A DNA stretch of 64,000 bases, taken from the NCBI GenBank assembly GCA_964566085.1, contig CAZMHO010000001.1, positions 3,887 through 67,886 on the forward strand, given 5' to 3'. The DNA comes from an uncultured Thermotogaceae bacterium (GTDB taxonomy: Bacteria; Thermotogota; Thermotogae; MWEM01). Shown here in pieces: positions 16,016 through 58,622 of the stretch. Position 1 is the first letter of the stretch. Each line of letters begins with the position of its first letter. Made by a program: the position numbers and the translations under genes. The notes below the pieces were generated by a model, which searched no databases, was not told where the DNA came from, and saw nothing but the letters and a program-made list of their open reading frames with translations.

Positions 16016-16783
16016 GTGGTCAGAGGAATCTATACAGCCGTTATGGGAATGCTTGTCGATCAGGCAATCGTGGATAACGCCTCCAACAATCTTGCCAACG
16101 TGGATACAACCGGTTTCAAACGGGACACCCAAGCTTTCCGGTCTTATCTTCAGCACGAAATCCTACGGATCGAAGCGGAAGACGGCCGCCAAAAACGGAC
16201 GCCTCTTGGAACGCTCGAACGCGGCGTGACCTTGGACGAAGTCCGTACCGATCAGTCCCAAGGCGCTGTCGACATGACCGAAGTGAATACCGACTTCGCG
16301 ATCGACGGAGAAGGTTTCTTCGCGATTCGAAGGCCGAACGGGGAGGTTTACTATACTCGAAATGGGAACGCTAAAATCAACGTGCAGGGAATCCTTGTAA
16401 ACCATAATAACGATCCATTCCTGAATGATGCCGGAGAAACGATTCCGTTTACCGCGTTCTCCCTTGTCGACAATCAAGGCAATATCCTCCAGGACGGCGT
16501 GATCCAAGGGAGATTAGGCCTCTATTCTTTTGAATCCGCCCGTCACCTTGAGAAAGTAGGATACACCCTATATAAACCCACCCCGCGCTCCGGGGAACCG
16601 CAGGCGGATTTTGAAAGCGCGGTTTATCAAGGATACCAGGAAAAGGCCACCGTCAACGCCATAAGCGAAATGGTCACGTTAATCGCCGCGCAACGGCACT
16701 TCGATATCGCCCAAAAGGTGATCACGACGGAAGATCAACTTCTGGACGCGGCGATTAACAAGGTCGGGACGACCCGTTCTTAG
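16016..16783 (+). CDS. Flagellar basal-body rod protein (FlgF/FlhO-like)
   Basis: N-terminal IYTAVMGM...NNLANVDTTGFK and C-terminal ISEMVTLIAAQRHFDIAQKVITTEDQLLD are flagellar rod family motifs. GTG start with RBS GGGAGGA. Confidence 0.75.
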   Translation: MVRGIYTAVMGMLVDQAIVDNASNNLANVDTTGFKRDTQAFRSYLQHEILRIEAEDGRQKRTPLGTLERGVTLDEVRTDQSQGAVDMTEVNTDFAIDGEGFFAIRRPNGEVYYTRNGNAKINVQGILVNHNNDPFLNDAGETIPFTAFSLVDNQGNILQDGVIQGRLGLYSFESARHLEKVGYTLYKPTPRSGEPQADFESAVYQGYQEKATVNAISEMVTLIAAQRHFDIAQKVITTEDQLLDAAINKVGTTRS

Positions 16784-16838
16784 AGCTGAACGGAACTGAG
16801 TTAGAAATAAGGAATAAATATCTGAAAGAGGTGAGATT

Positions 16839-17633
16839 ATGATAACAGCCTTGTACAGCGGCGCGACCGGAATGACCGGTCAACAGCACAAGCTCGATAC
16901 GATCTCCAACAATCTGGCCAATACGGATACGACCGGTTTCAAGCGGGTGCGGACGGAGTTCGTCGATCTGTTTTATCAGTATTCTCAGAACGCGGGAGTT
17001 CCGGTGCTGGCGCAAACCTCTTCGTTGCCTTCCGGGGTGTACACCGGTTTGGGATCACGAGTAGCGGCGACGACCCGTATCTTTACGGAAGGGAACATCG
17101 AAGAGACGGGCAGCCAACTCGATGTGGCGATTTCGGGTGACGGGTTTATGCAAGTTCAGCTTCAGGACGGAACGACGGCATATACCCGCGACGGCGCGTT
17201 TAAGCTTGACAACGAAGGCGTTCTCGTACTCAATACCGGTTATCCGATCATCAACGAAACGATTATCGTTCCGACGGAAGCTGTAGCGATACAAGTCGCT
17301 TCCGACGGCACCGTTGCGGCAGTCTTCGCTGACGATACACTCGAGGTCTTAGGCCAGATACAACTCGTTAGATTTATCAACCCGACGGGCCTCGATGCGC
17401 TCGGGAATAACTTATACCGCGCGACTCCCGCTTCCGGAGAACCTCAGGAAGGTATCGCCAATCAGGATGGATTCGGGTCGTTCATACAGGGATATTTGGA
17501 AAAGTCGAATGTGAACGCTGTACGGGAAATGGTCAGTATGATCACTTCGCAACGCGCGTACGAGCTCAACTCCCGCTCTATCCAAACCGCGGATGATATG
17601 TTGAGAACGGTGTACGGATTGAAACGGAGCTAA
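16839..17633 (+). CDS. flgG: Flagellar basal-body rod protein FlgG (FlhP-like)
   Basis: ALYSGATGMTGQQ...SNNLANTDTTGFK and C-terminal NVNAVREMVSMITSQRAYELNSRSIQTADDML; RBS GAGGTGAG. Confidence 0.8.
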   Translation: MITALYSGATGMTGQQHKLDTISNNLANTDTTGFKRVRTEFVDLFYQYSQNAGVPVLAQTSSLPSGVYTGLGSRVAATTRIFTEGNIEETGSQLDVAISGDGFMQVQLQDGTTAYTRDGAFKLDNEGVLVLNTGYPIINETIIVPTEAVAIQVASDGTVAAVFADDTLEVLGQIQLVRFINPTGLDALGNNLYRATPASGEPQEGIANQDGFGSFIQGYLEKSNVNAVREMVSMITSQRAYELNSRSIQTADDMLRTVYGLKRS

Positions 17634-17673
17634 AGCGTGAAGTTTAGCTTCTAAAGCCCCTTTTAAGGAGTGG

Positions 17674-19401
17674 ATGAATATGATCGGAGCTTTGTACAGC
17701 GGATTAAGCGGACTGCTCAACTTTCAGAAAGCGATAGACGTAACCAGCAATAATTCCGCCAACGTCGATACGATTGCTTACAAATACTCGCGGGTGACGT
17801 TCAAAACCGCGATCGAGTATATGTTAACAGGTTCTTCCAGCGCGAAAATCGGGACGGGTACCATGCTGAATACGATCGACCGGAACATGGCGCAGGGCCC
17901 GATCGAAAACACGGGACGATACAGCGATTTGGCGATTGCAGGGAGCGGCTTCTTCGCAGCGGCGGATTTTCGGAGGAATACTATCGGCGATCTCGTAAAG
18001 ATGAACAGCTACCTCACACGGGTGGGCAAGTTCGAAGTGCTTTCGAATCTCAACCTCGTCCAGGGAGACGTAGGGTTGCACATCTTGGGTATTCCTTCAA
18101 CAATCGTTAACGGAGATATTACGAAAGGTTCGATTCCCGATCCTGAAACGATGATTGGGATGAGTCCGGAAGAAAAAGCCGCATTCTTCGACAGCCTGGA
18201 GCTCATTGACCTGACCGATTTCAGATCGATGAGCGGAAAAGCGACCAGCGCATTCGAAATCTTCGGAACAATAGCGACGGAAGTAGGCCCCCAACCGCAC
18301 GTGTTTGAACTCTCATCAGCCGCCGATCCGCGTATCACCTATAAAGTGAGGATGACCTTCGATCGTCTGGCGGATGATCTATCCACGGTATTCGGAGATG
18401 AAAAGGCTTTCCATTGGCGCTTGGAAGTGATCGAATGGTCGCAAGGTGGGAACGAGCGGCCGCCAATCACGGGTGACAATGGTACGATCGCCTTCAATAA
18501 AGCCGGCAACATCTCTCTCTTGAACGGCGGAGCCGGAGAGATTCTATCCTTCGACATCAGCGGAGAGACCTTCAAGTTTTCTAAAGCCGAATTACTCAAT
18601 GCGGTTAACTATAAAGACCCGTCCGCACAAGTCGTCGATACCTTCTACAACGGTTCTGGAGAGGTTGTCAAAGACGGAATCATCTTCGAAAAACTTTCGC
18701 GAGGGACCTGGCTCTTTCGTCCGGCGCAAAGCGACGCGAAGATAGCGGCGACTTCCTTCATCGGTGAAAGCGGCGCGGAGTACGCTTTTGAAGATGAAGA
18801 ACTGAACCTGTTGGGGGGCATCCTCAAGTTCGACGAAAACGGCAGATATGAAAGCCTTTCGCTGATGAGATCGGACGGGACTCTGATTCCGGATGTTCCG
18901 AAGCAGATACAGTGGTCGCTTTTGGACGGAACCCAGCAGTCGATGACGATCAACTTCCGCAATATTCTATCTGGCGGCGGCGTCCAAAACGATCTGCAGC
19001 TTCTCCAAGACGGCGGGCGGGCTACCGGGAGTCTCCGGGGCTTGGAGTTCGACAACTCGGGATATCTCATCGGCTCCTACTCGAATCAAAAAACCGCAAC
19101 CTTAGCGGTTCTCCCGCTTATTCAGATGCGCGTGCCGGAAGCCCTATCCGTTTCGAATCTTTACAGCACGGCTTATAATTTCGATCCTGGTATCCAAGCG
19201 AACAACTTCACAGGCGTCTTTGAAGCGGGAAACGGCGGAACCGGTCTTATCGAACCTTACTCTCTGGAGTATTCAAATGTGGAGACCGCGAAAGAGATGA
19301 CCCGCCTGATTATTTATCAAAGGGCGCTACAACTCAATGCCCGTTCGGTTACGACAGCGGATGCGATCTTGCAGCAAGCCTATGAACTCAAACGCTCTTA
19401 A
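17674..19401 (+). CDS. Flagellar hook-family protein (FlgE-like, 575 aa)
   Basis: N-terminal ALYSGLSGLLNFQKAIDVTSNNSANVDT and C-terminal NVETAKEMTRLIIYQRALQLNARSVTTADAILQ flagellar hook/rod termini, with a long central domain. FlgE versus FlgK cannot be settled by eye. Confidence 0.6.
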   Translation: MNMIGALYSGLSGLLNFQKAIDVTSNNSANVDTIAYKYSRVTFKTAIEYMLTGSSSAKIGTGTMLNTIDRNMAQGPIENTGRYSDLAIAGSGFFAAADFRRNTIGDLVKMNSYLTRVGKFEVLSNLNLVQGDVGLHILGIPSTIVNGDITKGSIPDPETMIGMSPEEKAAFFDSLELIDLTDFRSMSGKATSAFEIFGTIATEVGPQPHVFELSSAADPRITYKVRMTFDRLADDLSTVFGDEKAFHWRLEVIEWSQGGNERPPITGDNGTIAFNKAGNISLLNGGAGEILSFDISGETFKFSKAELLNAVNYKDPSAQVVDTFYNGSGEVVKDGIIFEKLSRGTWLFRPAQSDAKIAATSFIGESGAEYAFEDEELNLLGGILKFDENGRYESLSLMRSDGTLIPDVPKQIQWSLLDGTQQSMTINFRNILSGGGVQNDLQLLQDGGRATGSLRGLEFDNSGYLIGSYSNQKTATLAVLPLIQMRVPEALSVSNLYSTAYNFDPGIQANNFTGVFEAGNGGTGLIEPYSLEYSNVETAKEMTRLIIYQRALQLNARSVTTADAILQQAYELKRS

Positions 19402-19423: not shown

Positions 19424-19455
19424 ATAAAAAAACGCCCGAAAGGGCGTTTTTTTTT
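19424..19455. terminator. Bidirectional intrinsic terminator
   Basis: A7-AACGCCC-GAAA-GGGCGTT-T9 serves the flagellar operon (+) and tRNA-Ser (-). Confidence 0.7.
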
Positions 19456-19543
19456 GGCGGAGAGAGTGGGATTTGAACCCACGTACGGGGTTAGCGTAAC
19501 ACACTCTCCAGGCGTGCGCCTTAGACCGCTCGGCCATCTCTCC
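19455..19543 (-). tRNA. tRNA-Ser (anticodon GGA), CCA encoded
   Basis: Minus-strand GGAGAGATGGCCGAGCGGTCTAAGGCGCACGCCTGGAGAGTGTG…GTGGGTTCAAATCCCACTCTCTCCGCCA. Anticodon loop CT-GGA-GA, long variable arm, T-arm GGTTCAAATCC. Confidence 0.85.
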
Positions 19544-20256: not shown

Positions 20257-20344
20257 CCTGATGTGTCGGCGGTGTCTGCGGGTCTACGTCCGTCTTTACC
20301 GGGCGATCGATCGACGAGATCGCCCGTTTCTGTGAGGTGAAACG

Positions 20345-32807: not shown

Positions 32808-33764
32808 ATGAAAAAAAACCCAATAACGAAGGGTATTTTGATAATCAATATCTTTATGTTCGTTTTGAGCGCCATTTCAAGCGGCGGCGCTTTTTTGACT
32901 TCGCTTTGGAGCGGGGGAAACGTGCAAACGCTTCTCAAATCAGGCGCGTCCTTGGGTATCTACGTGCAACAAGGGCAAATTTACCGCTTGGTTTCTTCGC
33001 TCTTTCTGCACGCCGGGTTAATACACCTGATCTTCAATTCCTATGCGCTCTACATGTTTGGAACCATCGTAGAATCCATCTTCGGTTCCAGGCGCTTTAC
33101 CGTCATCTACTTAGCGGCGGGTTTGGTTGGCGCCCTGTTGACACAATTTTTTTACCCCGGTGTCGTATCTGTCGGCGCAAGCGGCGCGATCTTCGGCCTC
33201 ATCGGGTTGTTGTTTGCCTTAGGATTGAGAAAGGATACGCCGAGACGGTTGACGCCTGTGACCGGAACGGCATTGTTGCCTATGATCATTATCAACCTCC
33301 TGCTCGGGTTCACGGTGCCAGGCATCAACAATTTGGCGCATATCGGGGGCTTGGCAACCGGTTTTCTTTTCGGGTTGGTTCTCACCCCTTTCAAAATCGT
33401 AATGAAGCAATGGTCGTTTCTTTGGACCGTTCTCGCCATCGTTTGTGTTGTCGTTTCGCTGGTTTGTATCAGTTACATCTTCCTCTTTCCAGAACCCGAT
33501 ATCGAACAGATCATCAGTTTTGCCAATCAATACGCCGAAGTGTTGTCTCTGCTTTCAGGGGCTCGAAATTTTCAGCGGTACAGCTACTACTATGAGCTGT
33601 TACGTCCATTTGACGCGGCTACGCAGGTCTTGAAAGAAGACATCCAAAGGTATATTGACTCAAGTGGGAGCAGTGAAAGGCTCAACGATCTTCAACTCCG
33701 GTACAAAAACTGGCAGGACGACATACTCAAACGGTATGGATCTTGGATAAAGATAGCGCCATGA
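32808..33764 (+). CDS. Rhomboid-family intramembrane serine protease with a C-terminal soluble extension
   Basis: GASGAIFGLIG (catalytic Ser) and AHIGGLATGFLFG (catalytic His), six TM helices. Confidence 0.8.
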   Translation: MKKNPITKGILIINIFMFVLSAISSGGAFLTSLWSGGNVQTLLKSGASLGIYVQQGQIYRLVSSLFLHAGLIHLIFNSYALYMFGTIVESIFGSRRFTVIYLAAGLVGALLTQFFYPGVVSVGASGAIFGLIGLLFALGLRKDTPRRLTPVTGTALLPMIIINLLLGFTVPGINNLAHIGGLATGFLFGLVLTPFKIVMKQWSFLWTVLAIVCVVVSLVCISYIFLFPEPDIEQIISFANQYAEVLSLLSGARNFQRYSYYYELLRPFDAATQVLKEDIQRYIDSSGSSERLNDLQLRYKNWQDDILKRYGSWIKIAP

Positions 33765-34843
33765 GAGTTCGGTTGATCGATATCCTTTTCCTCTTTGCTT
33801 TCTTCGGATCGGTTTTCTCCGGCGAAGCATCCGTACTGAACCTTCTATCGGAAGTGGCATTAGAGGGGAAATGCGTTCAGCTTTTTATTGATGAAGCGTA
33901 TCAGCGCGCGTTCGTGATCGATTATCTGAACCACGTCGTGCATGCTGTCGACTTGAAAACGAATCGCATCAGCCATCGTATCTCACAATCGGCTTATCCT
34001 GTCTATATCCTTTTTCACGCCGATCGCCTCTATATCTCGGATTTTTGGGGGCATAAGGTGGATGTTTACGATCGCGAAAGTCTCCTGCGCGTTGCTTCGA
34101 TACCGTGTAAACGCGGACCGGGATATATGATCGAGAGAGGCGGCCTGCTCTATGTCGCGAGTCAATTGGAGCCGGTTTTGCAGGTTTTCTATCTTCCGAC
34201 CGGCGAAGAGTTGTATGCCTTTCCGCTGGAAGGCCGCGTACCGAAATTCTTTCTGCTGGACGATTTAGTCATTCTTCCGTACTATGACAACTACCATACT
34301 TGGTCTCGCGACTTCGAGATGGTCGATTCGGTGGCCTTCCTGAACCCGACTACCTTTTCGAGGTGGGACATCGAAGGGAAGATAAAGAAGCCTCTCCATA
34401 TCCTCCGTATCGAGTCTGGCAAGTATTTGGTCGTCGGGTATCTAGATAATGCCATCTGGAGAGTGGATTGGGGCCAAAAAGAAGTCACGGAGTTTGTTTC
34501 TTGGAAAGGACACAGCCACATCATGGATGTCGCCATGTTCGCCGGGTATATCGCGATCTCTTCGATGAGCGAAGACGACCTCTTTTATTTAAGCCTTCCC
34601 TCCAAAGACCTACACCGGATCACGCTTGGGGGAGGCCTTATCGATCTTGAGCCTTATCAAGATCGATACTTGTTTGCAGCCGGTAACTTTGACAACACCT
34701 TATATGTTCTCGACGCTCAATATAGGCTGGTCGAAACCTGGCCGTTGAAAGATTATCCCATCGCGATGAAAGCCTATCATAACCGATTGGCCATACTCAA
34801 CATGGATAACCCTGTGCTAGCGATCTACGAAATAGGAAGGTAA
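33743..34843 (+). CDS. Secreted beta-propeller-like hypothetical protein
   Basis: A signal peptide (MRVRLIDILFLFAFFGSVFSG), then repeated about 40-aa aromatic/Gly units (YVxx, LYxA) suggestive of NHL/YVTN blades. Confidence 0.35.
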   Translation: MDKDSAMRVRLIDILFLFAFFGSVFSGEASVLNLLSEVALEGKCVQLFIDEAYQRAFVIDYLNHVVHAVDLKTNRISHRISQSAYPVYILFHADRLYISDFWGHKVDVYDRESLLRVASIPCKRGPGYMIERGGLLYVASQLEPVLQVFYLPTGEELYAFPLEGRVPKFFLLDDLVILPYYDNYHTWSRDFEMVDSVAFLNPTTFSRWDIEGKIKKPLHILRIESGKYLVVGYLDNAIWRVDWGQKEVTEFVSWKGHSHIMDVAMFAGYIAISSMSEDDLFYLSLPSKDLHRITLGGGLIDLEPYQDRYLFAAGNFDNTLYVLDAQYRLVETWPLKDYPIAMKAYHNRLAILNMDNPVLAIYEIGR

Positions 34844-34848
34844 AACAC

Positions 34849-35409
34849 ATGGAAGAAAACACGGACCGATCGAAGTCGAGATCGGCGACCACGAGTCCGG
34901 TACACGCCGTTTATCTGTCGCTCGGAAGCAACGTCGGCGATCGCAGAAACCATATCCGATGCGCTTTGCAGACTCTTGAGAAGAAGGGGGTGCGTTCTAT
35001 CCTAAAATCGAATCTGTATCTTTCAAAAGCATACGGGTATGAGGATCAGGATGATTTTTACAATATGGCTGTCGGGGTTTTAACCTCTTTACCGCCGTTC
35101 TCCTTGCTGAAAATGCTAAAAGAATCGGAGCGGGAGTGCGGTAGAAGCCCTACCTTCCAGTGGGGGCCGAGAGAAATCGATATCGATATTATTCTTTACG
35201 GGAATCTGGTTCTATCCGATGTCGACTTAGCCATCCCGCATCCGGATTTTCGCAATCGCGACTTCGTTTTGCGCCCGTTGTTGGATATTGGTCGCATGAT
35301 CATCGACCCGATTACGGGAAGAACTGTAGAGGGTCTCTATGGACTCTTGAGCAAAGATACCTGCATCTGCATCGGTCCGCTGGATGAGGTGGAAGAGGTG
35401 TCCGAATGA
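34849..35409 (+). CDS. folK: 2-amino-4-hydroxy-6-hydroxymethyldihydropteridine diphosphokinase
   Basis: VYLSLGSNVGDR…REIDIDIILYG are HPPK motifs. Confidence 0.85.
   Translation: MEENTDRSKSRSATTSPVHAVYLSLGSNVGDRRNHIRCALQTLEKKGVRSILKSNLYLSKAYGYEDQDDFYNMAVGVLTSLPPFSLLKMLKESERECGRSPTFQWGPREIDIDIILYGNLVLSDVDLAIPHPDFRNRDFVLRPLLDIGRMIIDPITGRTVEGLYGLLSKDTCICIGPLDEVEEVSE
34866..34886. repeat. 21-nt hairpin-capable repeat copy 1 (CCGATCGAAGTCGAGATCGGC)
   Basis: Exact 21-mer with inverted 6-nt ends CCGATC/GATCGG, at folK codons 6-12. Confidence 0.7.
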
Positions 35410-36827
35410 TACGCTTACGATTTGCCCCGAGCCCAACCGGATTTCTCCACGTCGGTGGCGTTCGCACCGCTCTGTTCAACTGGCTTTTCGCTCGGAAATC
35501 TGGCGGCAAGTTTATCTTGCGCATAGAGGATACGGATCAAGAACGTTCGACGAAAGCTTCGGAACAAGAAATATTCGAATCTCTTCATTGGTGCGGCCTT
35601 ATATGGGATGAAGGCCCGGATGTCGGAGGGGAATATGGTCCCTATCGTCAAATGGAACGACATGAGAAAGGTTTCTATCGCGACGCGGTCCGTATGCTGT
35701 TGGAGACAAAGCGCGCCTACTATTCGGTTGCGAAAATCACCGACCCCAAGACCGAAGTGCTCCGTTCGGATCATTATCCGGAGGGGTATTCGGAACAGGA
35801 GTACTTAATTGCCGTAAAGTTCGCGGTACCTCACGGTACGACGCATTTTTACGATCTCCTGAAAGGGGAGCTCCAGTTTGAGAATCAAACGATAGACGAC
35901 TTCGTCATCCTGAAATCAAGCGGAGTCCCGGTCTATAACTTCGCTGTCGTGGTCGACGATGCGATGATGCGGATTACGCACGTGATAAGGGGGGAGGATC
36001 ATATCTCGAATACACCAAGGCAGATCATGCTCTATCAAGCGTTGGGGTTGGATCTACCGGTCTTCATGCATCTTCCGTTAATTTTAGGCTCGGATAAGAC
36101 CCCTCTGAGCAAGCGCCACGGGGGAACTTCGGTAGAATTCTTCCGAAAGGAAGGGTATCTGTCGGAAGGGTTGATGAACTACCTGGCTTTGCTCGGTTGG
36201 AACGTAAAGCAAGAGGTCTTTCATCCTTTACGAGAGTTAGAAGGTTTTTCCTTGGAGAATATTTCAAACAAATCCGTTGTTTTCGATTATAAGAAGTTGG
36301 AATGGATCAACGGGAAACACGTCCATGCTTTGCCATTCTCGTCATACTTCGAGTTGTTTAAAGAGTGGAGCTCGCGTTATCGCGATGGCTATCCGGAGTT
36401 TTCCGAGCTCCTATCCCGTTATCCCCAAGGACGCATCGAACGGCTTTTGAAGGTGAGTCAAGAAAAAGCGAATACCTTCGTTCAATTGTTGCCGCTCTTG
36501 CGGCCTCTTCTCTTCGGCGCGGACGAACTGCTCTTCGACGAGAAATGGATCGATAAATACTTGAAGAAACCCGAAGCGCTTGGGTTCCTCGAAAAATCCG
36601 AAGAAGCGTTCGCCAAAAAACCGTTGGATACCTATGACGAGATAAAGTCCATTTTTGATGTGCTTATTGAAAACAGCGGATTATCTACGAACCAAGTCTA
36701 CCAAACCCTGCGCGGCGCGCTCACGGGCTCGCTGGTTTCACTGGGACTCATCGAAACCGTCGATTTTTTAGGGCGCGATGAAGTGGTCAAGAGGATTCAG
36801 AAAGCCACAGCGCGTCTTCTTCCTTAG
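35406..36827 (+). CDS. gltX: Glutamate--tRNA ligase
   Basis: RFAPSPTGFLHVGGVRTALFN (HIGH-class) and a KMSK-like LSKRHG. Confidence 0.9.
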   Translation: MIRLRFAPSPTGFLHVGGVRTALFNWLFARKSGGKFILRIEDTDQERSTKASEQEIFESLHWCGLIWDEGPDVGGEYGPYRQMERHEKGFYRDAVRMLLETKRAYYSVAKITDPKTEVLRSDHYPEGYSEQEYLIAVKFAVPHGTTHFYDLLKGELQFENQTIDDFVILKSSGVPVYNFAVVVDDAMMRITHVIRGEDHISNTPRQIMLYQALGLDLPVFMHLPLILGSDKTPLSKRHGGTSVEFFRKEGYLSEGLMNYLALLGWNVKQEVFHPLRELEGFSLENISNKSVVFDYKKLEWINGKHVHALPFSSYFELFKEWSSRYRDGYPEFSELLSRYPQGRIERLLKVSQEKANTFVQLLPLLRPLLFGADELLFDEKWIDKYLKKPEALGFLEKSEEAFAKKPLDTYDEIKSIFDVLIENSGLSTNQVYQTLRGALTGSLVSLGLIETVDFLGRDEVVKRIQKATARLLP

Positions 36828-36857
36828 AGGCGTATCGGTACCGGAGAGGGCGAAGGG

Positions 36858-37874
36858 ATGGAGGAAAGAAAGATCGAGACAACCAATCGAATCGGGTTTG
36901 CGGAGTATCGTTATCTCATTCGGCCATCGGAATCGGAACGCTTTCCGATCGACTGGGCATCGGAGTTTCGCAACGACAATCCAATCGAAGTCGAGATCGG
37001 CTTCGGGTACGGAGAATTTCTGAGAGAAATCGCTCAAGACCGGCTTCACAATAATTTTGTCGGCATCGAGACGTCGATCTTCTCCGCGGCGAAAGCGCAA
37101 AGAAAGTTCGCGGCTTCCGGTCTCGAAAACATCCGTTTGATCATCCTGGATGCCCGTTTTGCGTTGAGAAATCTATTCGGATCCGCTTCGGTAGCGAAAG
37201 TCTATTTGAACTTTCCGGTTCCTTGGTCGAAGAACCGGCATGCGGAACGTCGCGTGATCGTTCCGGAGTTCTTTACGACCTTGACCGATATCTTGTACGA
37301 CAAGGGGATTTTCGAATTGTCTACGGATGTGGCCACTTACGCGCAAGAGGCGGTTTTACTGGGGCAATCGGCCGGTTTCGGCGTATTGACCCAGGAGATA
37401 AACCCGGACCGCGAATCCATGACCCGTTTCGAGCGCAAATGGAAACGCTTTGATCGAGACATACACTTCGTCCGGCTGCAAAAACAGAAAACCGGGAGAG
37501 TTGAAAGGGCTTTAGAGGGGATGGTACCGATACCGCATCAATTTATCAAACACGACGAAATAGATATCTCAGGATTACGGGAGATCTTGGATAAGACCTT
37601 CAAGTCCGACGACGGGAAACAGATTTGCGTCTATAAATCCATATTTAAAGACCTCGCGTGGGATCAATACCTGGTTAAAACGGTTGCGAGCGACGAAGGG
37701 TTCATCCAACAGTGTATCCTCGTGTTAGTCCGAAGAGAACAGAATTGGTTGGTAAAACTGGACGGCGCCACGAATCCCTATCGCACACCCGCCGTAAAGT
37801 TTGCAGTAAAGCAACTCGCGCAAGCCCTGACGCGAAAGAGCGACCCGATCGAAGTCGAGATCGGCTCCCCATAG
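36858..37874 (+). CDS. trmB: tRNA (guanine46-N7)-methyltransferase with a ~110-aa C-terminal extension
   Basis: IEVEIGFGYGEF (SAM loop) and LNFPVPWSK are TrmB motifs. Confidence 0.8.
   Translation: MEERKIETTNRIGFAEYRYLIRPSESERFPIDWASEFRNDNPIEVEIGFGYGEFLREIAQDRLHNNFVGIETSIFSAAKAQRKFAASGLENIRLIILDARFALRNLFGSASVAKVYLNFPVPWSKNRHAERRVIVPEFFTTLTDILYDKGIFELSTDVATYAQEAVLLGQSAGFGVLTQEINPDRESMTRFERKWKRFDRDIHFVRLQKQKTGRVERALEGMVPIPHQFIKHDEIDISGLREILDKTFKSDDGKQICVYKSIFKDLAWDQYLVKTVASDEGFIQQCILVLVRREQNWLVKLDGATNPYRTPAVKFAVKQLAQALTRKSDPIEVEIGSP
36981..37001. repeat. Repeat copy 2 (CCAATCGAAGTCGAGATCGGC)
   Basis: 20/21 identical to copy 1; encodes PIEVEIG of the TrmB SAM loop. Confidence 0.7.
37845..37865. 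repeat. Repeat copy 3 (CCGATCGAAGTCGAGATCGGC)
   Basis: 21/21 identical to copy 1; encodes the last residues (PIEVEIG-SP*) of trmB. Confidence 0.7.
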
Positions 37875-37897
37875 CCATTGCCGGGAGAGAGGATCGT

Positions 37898-38626
37898 TTA
37901 TCGTTTCTTCCGCTTGAGTGGCGTCGCGTGCGGGATGTTCTGAGGGGTGGGAAGCTTCCTCTTCTTCTTCGTGGGGGTGGGGCTGTGCGGACTGACGGTT
38001 CTCTTCTTTATCAGAACGGGGTTTGTTGTGGTAAAGGTTTGCTTTTGATTTTTGAAGAGTATTTCCGCATTCAAGTACCGTGTGAATAACTTCTTTTCCT
38101 TCCGATATCCGGGCTTCGCAAAGAAGAACCCTAAGATGCCCTGCCATTCCAACACCCAACCCCAAATCGAAATCCCTTCGATAGCGGCGCGATAAAAGAT
38201 ATTCTCAAACTCGAATCCCATGAGGTAGTAGGCGGTAAACAAAAAGAAGAAGGCGAAGACCATTTCCGCGATGGCCAATGTGTTTGACTTGCCGATCTCT
38301 TTGTTGAGTTGGAAGATATCCATGCGGATATTGTTGCGAAAGCCTTGTTCAACCATCTTTTCGGCCGTCGCGTTTCGTTTATCCTCCGGGACTTCGATCG
38401 AGATGCGAATCGGATACTTAAGGGGTATCTCTTTCGAGCAATAGTCCAAATAGTCTGTCAAATCCGGGTGTAGATCGCGCCGGCGAAAGGGAGAAGGATC
38501 CCATTCGTTGAAGATTTCGTCGTAGTGGTCGATGGTGATTTCTATGGTAAAGGTTCCGCTTTCCGGGTCATAGGGGAAGATGGAACGCAGGTAGTTTAAG
38601 TCTTTGGAAACACGAATAAAAGCCAA
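37898..38626 (-). CDS. Hypothetical membrane protein (soluble N-terminal domain, 2 TM, poly-basic C-terminal tail)
   Basis: TM helices LAIAEMVFAFFFLFTAYYLMGF and ISIWGWVLEWQGILGFFF, and a tail KKKRKLPTPQNIPHATPLKRKKR. No recognised family. Confidence 0.35.
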   Translation of the reverse strand: MAFIRVSKDLNYLRSIFPYDPESGTFTIEITIDHYDEIFNEWDPSPFRRRDLHPDLTDYLDYCSKEIPLKYPIRISIEVPEDKRNATAEKMVEQGFRNNIRMDIFQLNKEIGKSNTLAIAEMVFAFFFLFTAYYLMGFEFENIFYRAAIEGISIWGWVLEWQGILGFFFAKPGYRKEKKLFTRYLNAEILFKNQKQTFTTTNPVLIKKRTVSPHSPTPTKKKRKLPTPQNIPHATPLKRKKR

Positions 38627-38631
38627 CTCCT

Positions 38632-39102
38632 TCAGTGAATCAGATGATGCCGATACACCCTAACATCTCTTACCGACATGGTGTCTTCCGGGATAAAAAA
38701 CGTAAATAGCCAATCGACCTTTCGGAATAACGGAAGAACGTTTTCCGGCCATTCGATGAAAACGATCGCCTCTTCCGTGGAAAGGTCAAAAAACCCGATA
38801 TTTTCCAAGGCCACAGAGTCGATTCGGTAACAATCGAGGTGGAAAAGGACATTCCGGCTTTTCCCCCCCGCTTCTTTCGTCTCGTATCGGTTGATCAGTG
38901 TAAAGGTTGGGCTGCGCACCGTTCTTTGATCGAGACCGTAAGCGCCGGCCACCGCTTTCATGAAGGTGGTTTTTCCGCTGCCGAGATCCCCAGACAAGAA
39001 TACGACATCGCCTGTTTTTACCCTGGCCGCAACCGATTGCGCGAGTCCCTGAAGTTCTTTTTCGCTGATATGGTAATAGAGAGACTCTAATCGCAAACCC
39101 AA
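38632..39102 (-). CDS. tsaE: tRNA threonylcarbamoyladenosine biosynthesis ATPase TsaE
   Basis: The LSGDLGSGKTTF P-loop and YjeE family size; overlaps the glpK stop. Confidence 0.8.
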   Translation of the reverse strand: MGLRLESLYYHISEKELQGLAQSVAARVKTGDVVFLSGDLGSGKTTFMKAVAGAYGLDQRTVRSPTFTLINRYETKEAGGKSRNVLFHLDCYRIDSVALENIGFFDLSTEEAIVFIEWPENVLPLFRKVDWLFTFFIPEDTMSVRDVRVYRHHLIH

Positions 39103-53164: not shown

Positions 53165-53548
53165 ATGCGTTTCTGGAGCCTTTTGCTTGTATTCTTTCTC
53201 TTGGCCGTTTTTGCCGGGGCATGGACAACGGACCTTAAAGAGATAAAAACGCGATACACTCAAGAACAGATTGTCGAGTCGTTTGAAAAGGCCCGGCGGC
53301 ACGAATGGCTTGAAGAGTATCAGGAGAAAGACAACGCAATCTACCTTCTTACGAGCAAATTCAAGTACCGGACCCGGCTTCTTGACGACCAAACCCTTGT
53401 CTTCGACCAAGTTCAAAGCCGTTACGACTATGATATGCAATTCCCTTTTTGGACGATCATACTCTTGTTCATCATATCGGGGGCGGTTTTGATACTCATT
53501 TTCTTCCTGCCTTCTGATTTCAAGTTTAGAAAGAGAAAATCGCGATGA
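53165..53548 (+). CDS. Small bitopic membrane protein (127 aa)
   Basis: An N-terminal signal/anchor (MRFWSLLLVFFLLAVFAGA), a C-terminal TM, and a basic tail (FRKRKSR). Lies directly upstream of the export-protein gene. Confidence 0.35.
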   Translation: MRFWSLLLVFFLLAVFAGAWTTDLKEIKTRYTQEQIVESFEKARRHEWLEEYQEKDNAIYLLTSKFKYRTRLLDDQTLVFDQVQSRYDYDMQFPFWTIILLFIISGAVLILIFFLPSDFKFRKRKSR

Positions 53549-53606: not shown

Positions 53607-56429
53607 ATGAATAAGAGGCTTTTGGTTAGCATGTGTTTCTTCGCCATCTTTCTTTCGATTTCTGTAGGTCAGTATGCGCTCAAGCCTGGAGACCAGATCG
53701 AGGTGTACAATTATACCTACCCGGAACTCAATCAACCGGCTTTGGTGGGAAAGGATGGCTTTATCCAGCTAAAGCTGATCGGCTCTGTGAAAGCGGAGGG
53801 TATGAGCTTGGAAGAGCTGGCTGCGTTCACGAAGAGCAAACTGACGCCGTTCGCGCCGGAATCCCGGGTGACGATCCTATTGACGCAAATCTACCCGGTC
53901 AAGGCCTATATTATCGGCGAAGTGAACCAAGCGACGATTATCGATTTGACATATGAAGAGAACCCGACCCTTCTGCAGGCATTGAGTTTTTGCGGCGGAG
54001 TGAAGACGTCGGCCGATTTGAAAAATATCCTCCTTCGGCACGAGGATGGCTCCTTCGATACCGTCGATATTTCCGGAACGCTCGAATTCGGTCTTTGCGA
54101 GGACATAATCGCGATTCGCCCCGGGGATGTCATCGTGGTTCCCAGAAAATACGAACGTCGGGTTTATGTGTTCGGAAGTCTGGAGCAATCGGGAGTCATC
54201 TATTTTGAAGAAAAGGAACCGATGGTTTTGGAGGTTCTGTTATCCAAGGTTAAGTACGATCTGCGCACTTCGGAACCCACGATCTCTTTGATTCGCGACG
54301 GATACGAAACGCCCTTAACGCTTGAGGGTACCCGTTCCGTCGTAAAAAAAACCGAACTCCGAAGCAACGATATTTTGCTGATCCGTAAACTGCAGCCGAA
54401 GTATTTGTACGTGACCGGTCTATCGACCGCGAGCCGTATTGATTTCGAAAGAGAGGAAGAGATGACGCTGCAAACGTTGTTCGGAAAATTGGGGTTTGCG
54501 CCGCTCTCCGCTCTGGAGATTCGCATCACTCCGGCAAATGGGCAAGCAAGGACGTTATCTATCAACCGTTCGATACCGGTTTATCGATTCGGATCGGGAG
54601 ATATCGTCGAGTTTCCCCCTCAGAACTACGTTTACGTGAGTGGAAACGTAAGCAAAACAGGAAAGATAGATTTCTCCTACTCAGAACCGTTTACCTTGGA
54701 AACGCTTCTGGCTCTAGTGGGAGTGGGCGAAGAAGAAAGCGTCCAACTGACGGTGATCAATCCTGACGGCCGTCGTTTTCTATACCAATATCCCGAACGG
54801 AGAGAGACGCTCACACCCCTCGAACGAGGCGCTTTCGTTCAGTTCCCGTACAAACGGTACGTCTTTCTGGCCGGTTCGATTTCCGAAGGCAACGAGCGGC
54901 AACTGTATTTTCCGAACGAAGAAGAGATGACATTAAAACGCGCCTTAGCCAAAGCAAGCATCGATCTGTCCCAAAACAACTACGGCGTCACGGTGATCCG
55001 CAGTCAGGACCAATACCCGTTCGATCTGAAAAGCGCCCTTCTCTCCGAGGGGAATTTTTTGTTGGAAACGGGCGATATCCTGTTTTTTGAGAAAGAGACC
55101 GATCGGTACGTTCATCTCGTCGTTTCCGAAGGCGATAGCCGAAAGTTGCATTTCGCGCCCGAAGACCCTTTAGACCTATTCACCGTTCTCGTCAAATATG
55201 AGAAAACGGGGGAACTGACCGGTGATCAGATCAAGATCATCGATCCGTCTGGCCGCATTTTTTTGAGTTCGGTCAAAGCGGTTTTGAATCAGGAGGAAAA
55301 CTACTCCCTGTCTCCCAAAAGCCTTGTCGTAATCAACGCTAACGAACGGCGCGTTTTTGTCTTAGGAAACGTGGAGCATAGCGGAGAGATACTCTTCGGT
55401 CAAGACGAACCCTTTACCTTGACCACGCTCGTCGCCAAATGCAACCCCATCCTGAACGAAAAAACCGAGAACATCCTGGTTAAGCGTCGCGCCGGCGTAA
55501 CTGTTTTGGATCTTCAGGATGTCTTGGACGTTTCAACGGTATTCGCGTTGGAAAAAGACGCGGTCGTGTACTTTAAACCGTACGAACCAAAAGTCGTGAC
55601 GATCTTCGGACAGGTAAAAATCCCCGGACTTTTATCCTTCGGCAAACTTGAACCGCTGAATCTGATGACCGTTTTGTCTAAGGCCGGAGGGTTGCTTTCC
55701 GATGCCAGCCAACGCATCAAAGTGGTCGGGGCTGACGGCAAAAGCACTATCTATAACCTGATTTCTGAACCGAATCCGGAAAGGCTCTCGATCGCTCCCG
55801 GCAGTTATGTTGTGGTAGAGAACAATCAGGGGCAGTATATCGCCATTTTGGGAGACGTGAAGAACCCGGGGCTTCATTACCTAAAAAAAGACGAACTCTC
55901 GCTATTGGAATTGCTGAGCGCGCAAGGGGGGGTCAGCGATTGGACCCTAAACACGACATTGGAACTTACCCGCTCGTCGGGAGAGAAAGAGCTCATAAAT
56001 ATCGATCTGGACCCCTCGTCGCTAAACAAGACGAAGGTACGGCCGGGAGATACGGTTTTCGTATACCCGAGCAGCCGCTTGAAAGTCTACGTGTTCGGAG
56101 CCGTGGTGAATCCGGGCATCGTCCCCTATCGATCGAAGATGACGCTATTAGAGTCTTTGCTCTATTGTAGAGGGCCTTCTTCTTCCGCATACATGAAGAA
56201 AATTATGGTCTTCCCCGGGGGTGTCGACGCGAATCCGATCCTGTTGGACTATTCCGGATTCAGGAACGAGCGAGGCGTCGCAGACTACTTCCTGGAGCCG
56301 GGAGACGTCGTTTACGTGCCCCAAAACGCATTAGTGGAGATTAAAGATGTCGCCGGATTTCTGGGTACCATGCTGACGCTCGTGAATTCTGGGTTCACGT
56401 TAATGGATAAGCTGCAAAATTTACCGTAA
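53607..56429 (+). CDS. Wza/KpsD-like polysaccharide export protein with about 10 tandem SLBB (beta-grasp) repeats
   Basis: An N-terminal signal peptide plus a Poly_export (PES) motif LKPGDQIEV…DGFIQLKLIGSVKAEG. Repeated about 85-aa units of the form [RK]xYVxGxVxxxGxxxFxxxEPxTLxxLLxxxGG recur about 10 times. The ATG at 53607 has a strong RBS AGAGGAG; the track ORF begins at a GTG inside that RBS. Confidence 0.7.
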   Translation: MNKRLLVSMCFFAIFLSISVGQYALKPGDQIEVYNYTYPELNQPALVGKDGFIQLKLIGSVKAEGMSLEELAAFTKSKLTPFAPESRVTILLTQIYPVKAYIIGEVNQATIIDLTYEENPTLLQALSFCGGVKTSADLKNILLRHEDGSFDTVDISGTLEFGLCEDIIAIRPGDVIVVPRKYERRVYVFGSLEQSGVIYFEEKEPMVLEVLLSKVKYDLRTSEPTISLIRDGYETPLTLEGTRSVVKKTELRSNDILLIRKLQPKYLYVTGLSTASRIDFEREEEMTLQTLFGKLGFAPLSALEIRITPANGQARTLSINRSIPVYRFGSGDIVEFPPQNYVYVSGNVSKTGKIDFSYSEPFTLETLLALVGVGEEESVQLTVINPDGRRFLYQYPERRETLTPLERGAFVQFPYKRYVFLAGSISEGNERQLYFPNEEEMTLKRALAKASIDLSQNNYGVTVIRSQDQYPFDLKSALLSEGNFLLETGDILFFEKETDRYVHLVVSEGDSRKLHFAPEDPLDLFTVLVKYEKTGELTGDQIKIIDPSGRIFLSSVKAVLNQEENYSLSPKSLVVINANERRVFVLGNVEHSGEILFGQDEPFTLTTLVAKCNPILNEKTENILVKRRAGVTVLDLQDVLDVSTVFALEKDAVVYFKPYEPKVVTIFGQVKIPGLLSFGKLEPLNLMTVLSKAGGLLSDASQRIKVVGADGKSTIYNLISEPNPERLSIAPGSYVVVENNQGQYIAILGDVKNPGLHYLKKDELSLLELLSAQGGVSDWTLNTTLELTRSSGEKELINIDLDPSSLNKTKVRPGDTVFVYPSSRLKVYVFGAVVNPGIVPYRSKMTLLESLLYCRGPSSSAYMKKIMVFPGGVDANPILLDYSGFRNERGVADYFLEPGDVVYVPQNALVEIKDVAGFLGTMLTLVNSGFTLMDKLQNLP

Positions 56430-56453
56430 AAGCCGAAAAAATGGGGGGATTTC

Positions 56454-58622
56454 GTGCCTTCGTCCGAGCGCGATGAGATCTACGAAAAAGAACCGAACGA
56501 GTTAACGATAAACGATCTGTTCCGCATGTTCAAAAGGCGGATTGTGTGGTTTTTACTCGTCGTGGTCCTTACCGTTATCGCCACGATCCTCTATGCCTTC
56601 ATCTCTCCGCGGGTCTACGAGTCGAGCGTGACGATAAAACTGTCGGCCGCCTCTTCTTCCGGCATCTCTGGTTTCTTGCAGGATCTTCCTTTTGGAATCG
56701 GCGGATCTTCGAGCGGTGGCAGCATTTTAACGGAGATAGAGATGATCACGAGCAAAGGCAACATCGAAAAGGTGATCCGAAATATCGGTTTGTTGGATAT
56801 TCTGATACCGGCGGAGAAAAGAAAACCTGGAGAAGCGGAGCAGGCAATGTTCTCGCGCGCCGTAAGCGCCTTGGCGGAACAGATCAGCGTGAACCCGGTT
56901 AAGAACACCAATATCGTCAAGATTACCGTTGCCTTATCAGAAGGGGATCTCGCAGCGCGTATCGCCAATGAGTTGGCTTCGGTATACAACGAAAGTTTGT
57001 ACGATATCAACAAAACGCAAGCGAATGAAAAGCTGTCGTTCATTGAGAAGCAGCTGCCTGTGAGTAAAGCCGCTCTTGACTTCTCTATACGGAAGGTGAG
57101 AGAGTATAAGGAAGCGAAACAGATCTTTCTGATATCCGAAGAAGCGAAGGCTTTGTTAGAGGTAATCGCGGACTTCGACAAGCAGTTGAATGCAAAAAAA
57201 ATGGAATTGCGAACGACTCAGGCAGGGATTGCGGCGATCCGGGAAAAACTCTCCGCAACAAACGAAAAATTGATCTCCTCGGAAACGATCACGATCAATC
57301 CGCTTGTCAGCGAATTGCGGAGCAAGTTAACGAATCTGAATATCGAATTGGCCGCTTTGGAGAAACTCTATCCGGCCACCGATCCTCGAGTTCTACAAAA
57401 AAGGAAGTCGATCGAAGAGACTCAGAAAGAGCTATCGAAACAAGTCGTCAATATTGTCACGTCTCAGCAAAAAACAGACAACCCGATTTACGCGACGCTT
57501 ATGGGAGAGTTGGTCATGAAAGAGATCGACTATCAACTCTACGCCGCGACGATTGAAGCTATTGAAAATACCCGCAAGGAATACGACCAAAAAATGAGAC
57601 AGCTCCCCGCTCTCGAGCAGGAACTCACCGAGCTGCTCCGAGAGGAGAGCATCAACGAGCAGGTCTATGTCGCCCTCTACAAGAGTTATATCGACGCCCA
57701 GATTTCCGAAGCCGGGATCGTCAACCAAACCTATATCGTGGACGCAGCGGAACCCCCTTTGAATGCCGCGAAACCTCAAAAAAAACTCATCGTGGCGATA
57801 GGCGGGGTTTTGGGAGTATTCCTGGGCATCCTGTTCGTATTCGTTCTCGAATACCTTGAAAAACGGATTATGGATACCGAGGAGCTCGCGAAGATGACGG
57901 GGGACGCGGTCCCGATCTTCGGCTTTTTCCCGAAAACCAAAACCGGCCTTCTTCCGATTAATCCCCAGAATCCCGATCGCCTCCTCTCCGAAGCGGCTGA
58001 GACAGCCTATACGCGATTCCATTTAAGAAAACATGAACGCCCTTCGAAAGTTATCGCGATTACGAGTTCCGAGAGCAACACCGGGAGTTCTACACTTGCC
58101 TTCTACCTTGCGCAAACAATTGCTCGAAGCAGGGAACGCGTTCTCCTGATCGACGGGGCGCTACGATATACCAACCTCACGAAACGCATCGGATTGCCGA
58201 ATCACCAGACCGGCTTTTCTCAAGCCATTTCGGAGGGCTTCTCCGAACGGGTTCCTGTGGTTTCGCTACAACCTTATCTGGACTTTCTGCCGGCCGGAAA
58301 GCACGACGCGCATCCGTTGGCCCTGTTCCGAGGAAAACGGTTTGAAGAGTGGATAACCGCCATGGCGAAAGAATACGATCGAATTCTCATCGATACGCCG
58401 GCGATGAACCGGGATGTGGATACGTCCATGCTTATCGCGAGAACGGAAGGCGTTTTTTTGGTGGTCACGATTGGAAAAACCGGGAAACGCGCTTTTAGAA
58501 AGGCGCTGAACGATATTGGTTACGCGCAAATCCCTTTGTTGGGCCTTTTGGTCAATAAATGCCAAATCGGTAAAGATTTCTCCCTTCGAAAAAATGAAAA
58601 TCGATCCGAGATTCAAGCCTAA
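56454..58622 (+). CDS. Wzc/GumC-like polysaccharide co-polymerase with a degenerate BY-kinase-like ATPase domain
   Basis: A Wzz N-terminal TM, a long coiled-coil periplasmic region, a second TM (LIVAIGGVLGVFLGILFVFVL), then a CapB-like domain. The Walker A position reads ITSSESNTGSST (no Lys) and there is no C-terminal Tyr cluster. Confidence 0.65.
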   Translation: MPSSERDEIYEKEPNELTINDLFRMFKRRIVWFLLVVVLTVIATILYAFISPRVYESSVTIKLSAASSSGISGFLQDLPFGIGGSSSGGSILTEIEMITSKGNIEKVIRNIGLLDILIPAEKRKPGEAEQAMFSRAVSALAEQISVNPVKNTNIVKITVALSEGDLAARIANELASVYNESLYDINKTQANEKLSFIEKQLPVSKAALDFSIRKVREYKEAKQIFLISEEAKALLEVIADFDKQLNAKKMELRTTQAGIAAIREKLSATNEKLISSETITINPLVSELRSKLTNLNIELAALEKLYPATDPRVLQKRKSIEETQKELSKQVVNIVTSQQKTDNPIYATLMGELVMKEIDYQLYAATIEAIENTRKEYDQKMRQLPALEQELTELLREESINEQVYVALYKSYIDAQISEAGIVNQTYIVDAAEPPLNAAKPQKKLIVAIGGVLGVFLGILFVFVLEYLEKRIMDTEELAKMTGDAVPIFGFFPKTKTGLLPINPQNPDRLLSEAAETAYTRFHLRKHERPSKVIAITSSESNTGSSTLAFYLAQTIARSRERVLLIDGALRYTNLTKRIGLPNHQTGFSQAISEGFSERVPVVSLQPYLDFLPAGKHDAHPLALFRGKRFEEWITAMAKEYDRILIDTPAMNRDVDTSMLIARTEGVFLVVTIGKTGKRAFRKALNDIGYAQIPLLGLLVNKCQIGKDFSLRKNENRSEIQA

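Follow-up and report, generated by a model that had tools for sequence, protein, structure and literature searches.

A 21-nt sequence found at three sites of the folK–gltX–trmB locus of an uncultured Thermotogaceae bacterium, with a probable source in trmB

Why should one 21-nt sequence occur three times within 3 kb of a bacterial housekeeping locus, once in folK and twice in trmB, with gltX in between? We addressed this question in a 64-kb stretch of DNA from an uncultured Thermotogaceae bacterium (contig CAZMHO010000001.1), here called the window, whose positions are used for all coordinates below. An earlier note on the same DNA had pointed out the three copies and offered several origins for them: a past template switch or gene conversion, a small dispersed element, or a recombination substrate able to excise or amplify the three genes. 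The analysis presented here favours two local copying events with the SAM-binding motif of trmB as their source, and we weigh the alternatives against it.

Three copies of one 21-nt sequence

The pattern CCRATCGAAGTCGAGATCGGC matched the 64-kb window exactly three times, always on the + strand. The sequence CCGATCGAAGTCGAGATCGGC is present at 34866–34886 (copy 1) and at 37845–37865 (copy 3), in both cases with 21 of 21 positions identical, and CCAATCGAAGTCGAGATCGGC at 36981–37001 (copy 2) agrees at 20 of 21, having CCA for CCG. Between copies 1 and 3, which form exact direct repeats of 21 bp, the distance is 2,979 bp, and a repeat search of the window returned no other exact multi-copy family of this type. 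When the window was shuffled 100 times with dinucleotides preserved, the 21-mer was never matched, even with three mismatches allowed, which confirms that the repeats are real and not due to chance, and makes this statistically secure. The positions and degrees of identity given in the earlier note, and its claim that the copies exceed chance, were therefore correct, as were the reading frames it had assigned, judging from the sequence and the map of open reading frames (ORFs).

Copy 1 begins with the last base of folK codon 6, ends with the second base of codon 13 and adds seven residues to FolK, which at this point reads D-RSKSRS-A. Copy 2 occupies codons 42–48 of trmB and encodes PIEVEIG, the β1 strand and the start of the S-adenosylmethionine (SAM)-binding motif I of TrmB. 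Copy 3, at the 3' end of trmB (codons 330–336), is read in the same frame as copy 2 and encodes PIEVEIG once more, followed by TCC CCA TAG (Ser-Pro-stop). The 11-nt flanks of the copies, upstream and downstream, match at 5–6 of 11 positions at best (P about 0.04 per comparison, from random window pairs), and because this similarity is not significant we take the 21-mer itself as the repeat unit. A longer unit of 32 nt, suggested by the repeat search, and a target-site motif shared by the copies were both rejected on the basis of the same flank match.

Copies 1 and 3 can each form a perfect hairpin, with a 6-bp stem (CCGATC/GATCGG) and an 8-nt loop, which takes up bases 1–20 of the 21 and has a folding energy of −8.8 kcal/mol as RNA and −4.5 as DNA. 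As RNA, 2–3 of 200 shuffles fold equally well, and by a rough estimate about 1 in 1,000 arbitrary 21-mers has terminal 6-nt inverted repeats. Copy 2, in contrast, carries an A-C mismatch in the stem that results from its CCA codon and hardly folds (RNA −2.8, DNA −0.8); in its native context it prefers another hairpin, pairing with the downstream GGCTTCGGG. The stem-loop that had been attributed to every copy is thus a property of copies 1 and 3, and not of copy 2. The motif-I sequences of related bacteria have energies of −2.2 to −6.3 kcal/mol, and the hairpin is therefore not a conserved property of trmB.

The same arrangement was recovered in other assemblies. JGI scaffold 3300020048 Ga0207193_1000274, which differs from the window by scattered single-nucleotide polymorphisms (about 0.1%), carries all three copies unchanged, and two ENA contigs that are 100% identical to the window carry copy 1 (L043, ERZ27262922) and copies 2 and 3 (L022, ERZ27262927). 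As assemblies from at least three samples contain the repeats, they are not an artefact. Furthermore, the sequences flanking the 21-mer are unique, the assembly k-mer suggested by the k141 contig names greatly exceeds it in length, and the segment is present in a single-copy arrangement in all assemblies compared.

With the extensions provided by the JGI scaffold, ~79 kb of the same genome were available for searching. No further copy of the 21-mer was found there at up to five mismatches, beyond the 3-kb cluster: both ectopic copies lie no more than 2.2 kb from copy 2, and none lies in the other roughly 76 kb. This absence from ~79 kb is compatible with up to roughly 100 copies per genome.

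Source of the copies and their insertion

The window was compared at the DNA level with the relatives L023/L024, L026, L027 and L028 (locus labels), the closest of which, L023/L024, is 79.6% identical at the nucleotide level over 9.7 kb and has the same gene order. The order rhomboid–hypothetical–folK–gltX–trmB is kept in all of them, and the convergent genes hypothetical–tsaE–glpK downstream are also found in L023/L024 and L026. Comparison of the orthologous folK and trmB termini, which the earlier note had proposed, showed that the relatives carry copy 2 only: the motif-I site is the one place that resembles the 21-mer, and neither copy 1 nor copy 3 occurs in L023, L024, L026, L027 or L028. 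This site reads CCGATTGAAGTCGAGATCGGC in L023, CCGATAGAAGTCGAGATAGGC in L027 and CCTATCGAAGTGGAAATCGGT in L026, with variation of a third-position, synonymous type. In TrmB, copy 2 falls at the start of the Methyltransf_4 domain (Pfam PF02390, residues 41–203), and residues E46, I47, G48, F49, G50 and G52 are invariant in homologues, so that copy 2 is, as had been claimed, the genuine SAM motif I. Judged from these sequences, copy 2 is the ancestral copy and the source of the other two.

At copy 1 the alignment to L023 contains a single clean 21-nt in-frame gap, exactly at the copy, and the upstream stop, the Shine-Dalgarno sequence, the ATG and the first five codons are conserved beside it. 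FolK has accordingly 186 aa in the window and 179 aa in L023. At the other end of the segment, TrmB terminates in ...RKEA, ...RNESDD or ...RKNPPIS in the relatives and in ...RKSD-PIEVEIG-SP in the window. Among 60 long-form TrmBs, the protein encoded in the window is the only one in which its own motif-I heptapeptide is repeated (the 59 others are without it). Over the 9.7 kb compared with L023 only three coding indels were found, and two of these are the 21-mer. Copies 1 and 3 are shown by these comparisons to be lineage-specific insertions. The third indel, an 18-nt in-frame insertion at 38852 in tsaE (− strand, 38632–39102), reads TTCCGGCTTTTCCCCCCC on the + strand and has no sequence relation to the 21-mer.

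The copies also retain information on the state of their source. The Ile codon is ATC in copies 1 and 3 and in the trmB of the window, ATT in L023 and ATA in L027, and the Pro codon is CCG in copies 1 and 3, in L023 and in L027. Sharing ATC with the trmB of the window and CCG with L023 and L027, the copies therefore point to the lineage's own trmB, before a G to A change, as the source, which they match at 20 of 21 positions, or at 21 of 21 if the inferred ancestral CCG is taken.

No target-site duplication was found, the net gain at folK being exactly 21 nt relative to L023. To the left of the unit the neighbouring bases are A, T and C, to its right G, T and T, and at most 1 nt is common to source and target at a junction (the T at the right end of copy 3). 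Because these bases differ between source and targets, there is neither a target-site duplication nor microhomology at the junctions. In L023 the orthologues of the recipient sites do not resemble the 21-mer, and gene conversion, strictly defined, is thereby excluded. Of the first origin offered in the earlier note, this part is lost, and ectopic copying remains, with template switching the best supported of its options.

Both targets appear able to accommodate additional residues. The gene folK (34849–35409, + strand) encodes HPPK, with the Pfam domain PF01288 at residues 22–147, and copy 1 precedes this domain. It is followed, between copies 1 and 2, by gltX (35406–36827, + strand), which encodes a glutamyl-tRNA synthetase of 473 aa (Pfam tRNA-synt_1c and Anticodon_2). 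The gene trmB (36858–37874, + strand), host of copies 2 and 3, encodes a long-form tRNA m7G46 methyltransferase of 338 aa. In its AlphaFold model (mean predicted local distance difference test score, pLDDT, of 91.7), the strand E43–47 has a pLDDT of about 97, while the tail 326–338 is a coil after the last helix and its last block, 331–338, averages 55. A structural role for the extra PIEVEIG was rejected in view of this predicted coil and of the low score of its last eight residues. Domain positions and model together show both ectopic copies outside the predicted folded domains, in protein tails that are probably disordered.

The comparisons above demonstrate the insertion events, their source, boundaries, locality and tolerance. 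To explain them we favour, with moderate confidence, a model in which a 21-nt segment of trmB, delimited by its hairpin, was inserted twice by local templated copying during replication, both insertions being fixed as near-neutral passengers; a harmless accident of local copying is the most likely origin of the copies, ahead of a mobile element or a regulatory device. The trmB of this lineage would once have read CCG ATC GAA GTC GAG ATC GGC, and these 21 nt would have been copied twice in the interval between the divergence from the L023 lineage and that of the two sampled strains. We infer that, during replication, the nascent strand briefly switched to the nearby single-stranded trmB segment. 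The inserted bases equal a same-strand template at a short distance, as this requires: copy 1 lies 2,115 nt upstream and copy 3 864 nt downstream of copy 2, in the same orientation, and all three are on one strand. Both insertions have identical ends, which frame the hairpin, and the hairpin may have set the start of copying as well as the point at which the nascent strand peeled off, so that the two events would share their ends because copying began and ended at fixed places. The source would then have acquired a synonymous CCG to CCA change that broke its own stem, and the copies would preserve the older state. Since 21 nt amount to seven codons and both targets encode disordered tails, the insertions could be tolerated and fixed. 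Their by-products would be a new seven-residue stretch in each protein, two stable mRNA stem-loops and a pair of 21-bp direct repeats, in principle able to mediate duplication or deletion.

Known forms of template switching fit these copies in part. Quasi-palindrome correction acts over tens of bases and in inverted orientation, and the junctions produced by fork stalling and template switching or microhomology-mediated break-induced replication (FoSTeS/MMBIR) usually have 2–5 nt of microhomology and variable ends. The 21-mer resembles the products of such processes in having been copied from a template that is near on the scale of a replication fork, in forming a hairpin and in lacking enzyme-specific signatures, but its copies are direct, 0.9 and 2.1 kb away from the template, free of microhomology and twice delimited by the same ends.

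Several observations weigh against replication-associated copying. The junction microhomology usual in classic template switching is not visible at either insertion, and two events with identical ends are unusual for a stochastic replication error; that delimitation by the hairpin would account for these ends is our own proposal, and the mechanism is seen only through its products. The closest relative, at only about 80% identity, is too distant to order or date the two events or to judge their independence, and the site of copy 3 lies in a diverged region, where the pre-insertion state is less certain than at copy 1. Further copies may exist outside the ~79 kb searched, and a function of the hairpins, although doubtful, would also speak against mere passengers. 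GC skew follows gene orientation in this DNA and gives no usable replication-strand signal.

Mobile, regulatory and recombination readings

An alternative, which we consider unlikely although several features fit it, is that the 21-mer represents a mobile hairpin element, nascent or very small, similar to the small dispersed repeats (SDRs) or the repetitive extragenic palindromic sequences (REPs) and mobilised in trans. A hairpin-recognising enzyme of the HUH/RAYT type, or an RNA intermediate, would in this case have moved a family seeded by the trmB coding sequence, with further copies to be expected elsewhere. The identical, self-defined ends of the insertions coincide with the terminal 6-bp inverted repeat, and the lack of a target-site duplication, together with the location of all copies on one strand, is what single-strand HUH transposition produces.

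The SDRs of Nostocaceae are the closest described objects. SDR1-8, which Elhai et al. are said to have described in 2008 from Nostoc and other Nostocaceae, are reportedly hairpin-type sequences of 21–27 nt, high-copy, dispersed and without an encoded protein, which insert at the HIP1 octamer, at heptamer repeats and into their own copies. In the literature they are described as very small mobile elements, reported so far only from Nostocaceae. With its 21 nt the unit studied here lies within their size range, and it shares with them the hairpin, the absence of an encoded protein and a presence or absence that varies at orthologous sites among relatives. It differs in that its three copies all fall within 3 kb, the source among them being a conserved coding motif, and in belonging to a Thermotogota-like genome.

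Evidence of spread would be expected from such an element, but only three copies are present in ~79 kb, all within 3 kb, and among the genes with Pfam calls that were looked at across this length there was no transposase, integrase or reverse transcriptase, and no RAYT or Y1 HUH transposase. Public collections, scanned without the window's own genome and giving no genome-wide copy number, contained 20 matches to the 21-mer among 185,579 species genomes, a further 13 among the metagenome contigs of JGI/ENA, and none among viral contigs. All of these matches were single and in unrelated, mostly high-GC genomes; three are the trmB motif I of other organisms, and the remaining ones are chance matches, in other frames or genes. 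The three unrelated organisms with an identical or near-identical 21-mer in trmB have one copy each in the fetched loci, and the sequence is therefore not intrinsically self-spreading. The suggestion of a small dispersed element thus found no support. What we see in the ~79 kb and in the relatives is instead the pattern that the earlier note had set against its own proposals: a local duplication of trmB codons, absent from orthologous positions and with no copy elsewhere.

REPs of the REP/REPIN-RAYT system are extragenic, have a conserved 5' tetranucleotide and number tens to hundreds per genome (PMC3116915, Bertels and Rainey 2011); their replicating form is an inverted doublet (REPIN), and a RAYT gene of the HUH Y1 type is found in the same genomes (PMC3116915). 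The 21-mer is likewise a short palindromic hairpin without target-site duplication and with possible effects on mRNA stability. However, all three copies, the two ectopic ones included, lie inside ORFs and not in extragenic DNA, their flanks are not conserved (there is no GTAG-like tetranucleotide), and they are single and direct, with no inverted doublets. Elements of the IS200/IS605 type differ in another respect, as they have distinct subterminal hairpins at the left and right ends, guide sequences and a conserved target of 4–5 nt on the 5' side of the insertion. In the 21-mer one hairpin fills 20 of the 21 nt, and the bases that precede the copies (CGGA, CGAC) share no target motif; the unit has no room for either IS200/IS605 guide or REP tetranucleotide signals. 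A miniature inverted-repeat transposable element (MITE) mobilised by a DDE transposase would have terminal inverted repeats, present here as 6 bp, and a target-site duplication, which is absent. Rickettsia palindromic elements (RPEs) are about 100–150 bp long, dispersed in many genes and not derived from a neighbouring gene. The 21-mer has in common with them that palindromic DNA is carried in frame in housekeeping genes and tolerated at permissive parts of the protein, but RPEs are five to seven times longer, and dispersed. We class the 21-mer apart from every one of these named families, as kin to short templated or ectopic micro-duplications and to miniature hairpin repeats.

A self-delimited hairpin unit that is copied and pasted by the cellular machinery, caught at birth with a copy number of three, seems to us improbable. 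If this were true, few known mobile DNA units would be as small, none of this kind would have been known before from outside cyanobacteria, and the unit would give a direct view of how a REP/SDR-like family originates from a housekeeping coding sequence.

We are more doubtful still that the two ectopic hairpins were retained for an action in cis, either as RNA stem-loops or as a palindromic operator. In the first form they would alter the initiation of folK translation (the stem begins at +18) and the 3' stability or processing after trmB; in the second, CCGATC-N8-GATCGG would be bound by a DNA-binding protein that coordinates folK–gltX–trmB. The perfect stem is indeed kept in both ectopic copies and lost in the source, and the copies lie near the start and the end of the three-gene block, but the upstream gene ends 5 nt ahead of the folK ATG, so that another gene probably precedes folK on its transcript, and the relatives manage without the hairpins. 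The ancestral terminator-like hairpin that follows trmB in L023 looks degraded in the window, judged by eye; however, no U-tract follows either + strand hairpin, scans for terminator and promoter consensus gave no more sites than in shuffles, and Rfam had no match in 34500–38200 even at E = 5. No other CCGATC-N(3-14)-GATCGG site exists in the ~79 kb. The two strains, which are 0.1% apart, have both copies fixed and are too close to judge conservation.

Two further ideas on the hairpin sequence were rejected. An enrichment of HIP1-like palindromes is apparent for GATC and CGATCG, which exceed the expectation from base composition, but a Markov model accounts for it fully; mimicry of a tRNA T-arm, directed at TrmB or GluRS, was discarded by inspection only, as the loop GAAGUCGA does not fit a T-loop. 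Two other hairpins of the window were recorded. A perfect 12-bp inverted repeat with a 6-nt loop (TATCGATCTTGA GCCTTA TCAAGATCGATA) lies at 34639–34668 (+ strand), 198 nt upstream of copy 1, inside the coding sequence of a gene without Pfam match (33743–34843). Its DNA folding energy is −10 kcal/mol (z = −6.9), and the window has only three other perfect stems of 9 bp or more. In L023 the orthologous site is complementary at only 8 of 12 positions, and in L026 and L028 at fewer; the ancestry is ambiguous, as the palindrome may have been perfected in the window by a CAA to CGA change or degraded in L023, and it could represent another hairpin-related mutational footprint in the locus. An intergenic hairpin with a 9-bp stem at 20300–20326 (CGGGCGATC GATCGACGA GATCGCCCG), upstream of a gene with a SpoIIE domain, shares with the 21-mer CGATC/GATCG in the stem and a TCGA-containing loop, a likeness that may reflect only the richness of the genome in GATC/TCGA words, which the Markov model explains.

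A purposeful recombination module, in which the 21-bp direct repeats serve the excision or tandem amplification of folK–gltX–trmB, is very unlikely. At 21 bp the two exact repeats are roughly as short as homologous recombination permits, and exact direct repeats of ~20 bp that bracket a block of genes are also what the attL/attR sites of an integrated island look like. The block, however, is syntenic in relatives that have no repeats, and it is therefore ancestral and not an inserted unit; copy 1, the one site that is cleanly resolved, gained only 21 nt, and the genes looked at did not include an integrase. That the repeats flank the three genes, as the earlier note stated, is literally true and yet misleading, as nothing is bracketed as a unit. 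The consequences of recombination also speak against a module: gltX would be lost by a deletion from copy 1 to either of the other copies, one between copies 2 and 3 would leave a TrmB stub of 50 aa, and after a duplication the second folK would be without the Shine-Dalgarno sequence and ATG, which lie upstream of copy 1. The single-copy arrangement in all assemblies likewise speaks against it.

A chance coincidence or an assembly or sequencing artefact, the latter raised in the earlier note, is hardly credible, as no point in its support was found, none of the 100 shuffles matched, and the JGI scaffold and the contigs of two ENA assemblies agree on the copies.

Neighbouring features and significance

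The TrmB homologues are of a Thermotogota type, with 300–330 aa and a conserved C-terminal domain, and the best named matches are Thermotogota metagenome-assembled genomes and Fervidobacterium; by these homologues the window belongs to an uncultured lineage that is Thermotogota-like. This long form has a conserved C-terminal region of about 135 residues past Methyltransf_4 (roughly 204–325), which in the model comprises a beta-rich part and the final helix; the taxa given for full-length homologues are Thermotogota, Bipolaricaulota/Acetothermia and Omnitrophota. In the literature, the long C-terminal region of thermophilic TrmBs has been linked to thermostability and to fidelity for G46. Two gene calls were made on the − strand near the 3' end of trmB: a JGI call at 37725–38165, a 140-aa gene that overlaps this end, and an ENA call at 37898–38626, a convergent ORF of 242 aa that ends 23 nt past trmB. 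The latter has a Lys/Arg-rich C-terminal tail, no Pfam match and a syntenic counterpart in relatives.

Elsewhere in the window, Rfam identified one tmRNA and one tRNA only. The tmRNA gene is at 1926–2277 (− strand), with the tag peptide VEPEFALAA, and tRNA-Ser(GGA) at 19455–19543 (− strand), followed by a perfect 12-bp A/T-flanked hairpin at 19426–19453 that we read as a bidirectional terminator. Three adjacent flagellar rod/hook-type genes at 16016–19401 (Flg_bb_rod, Flg_bbr_C) have in common a conserved 44-nt N-terminal coding segment, recorded as direct-repeat family D1; these genes are ordinary paralogues.

The strains also differ outside the locus. In the glycosyltransferase gene at 709–1788, the patch 1474–1530 contains about 10 substitutions and two one-base indels in 57 nt, when the window is compared with the JGI scaffold and with one ENA contig, in surroundings that are about 99.9% identical. 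A small inversion was rejected as an explanation, as the patch consists of substitutions, and it is probably a short recombination tract or a hypervariable patch. Differences from the JGI scaffold also cluster at 53189–53275, 53736–53845 and 56403–56490, in and around polysaccharide-export (Poly_export/SLBB) and Wzz/GNVR tyrosine-kinase-like genes, which suggests recombination or diversifying change in a surface-polysaccharide locus.

The copies of the 21-mer are an unusual evolutionary footprint without evidence of function. They urge some caution in the reading of genomes, as a duplicated SAM-motif peptide at the end of a protein need not mean a domain, and repeats that bracket genes need not mean an island or a cassette. 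The locus also provides a clean natural case in which ectopic sites of a bacterial housekeeping operon have twice received an exact copy of a short sequence; we can identify the source, both targets and, for one of these, the state before insertion. It illustrates how new peptide tails, mRNA stem-loops and recombinogenic direct repeats can originate in a single step. If the genome holds more copies, the locus would record how a miniature repeat family arises de novo out of a coding sequence.

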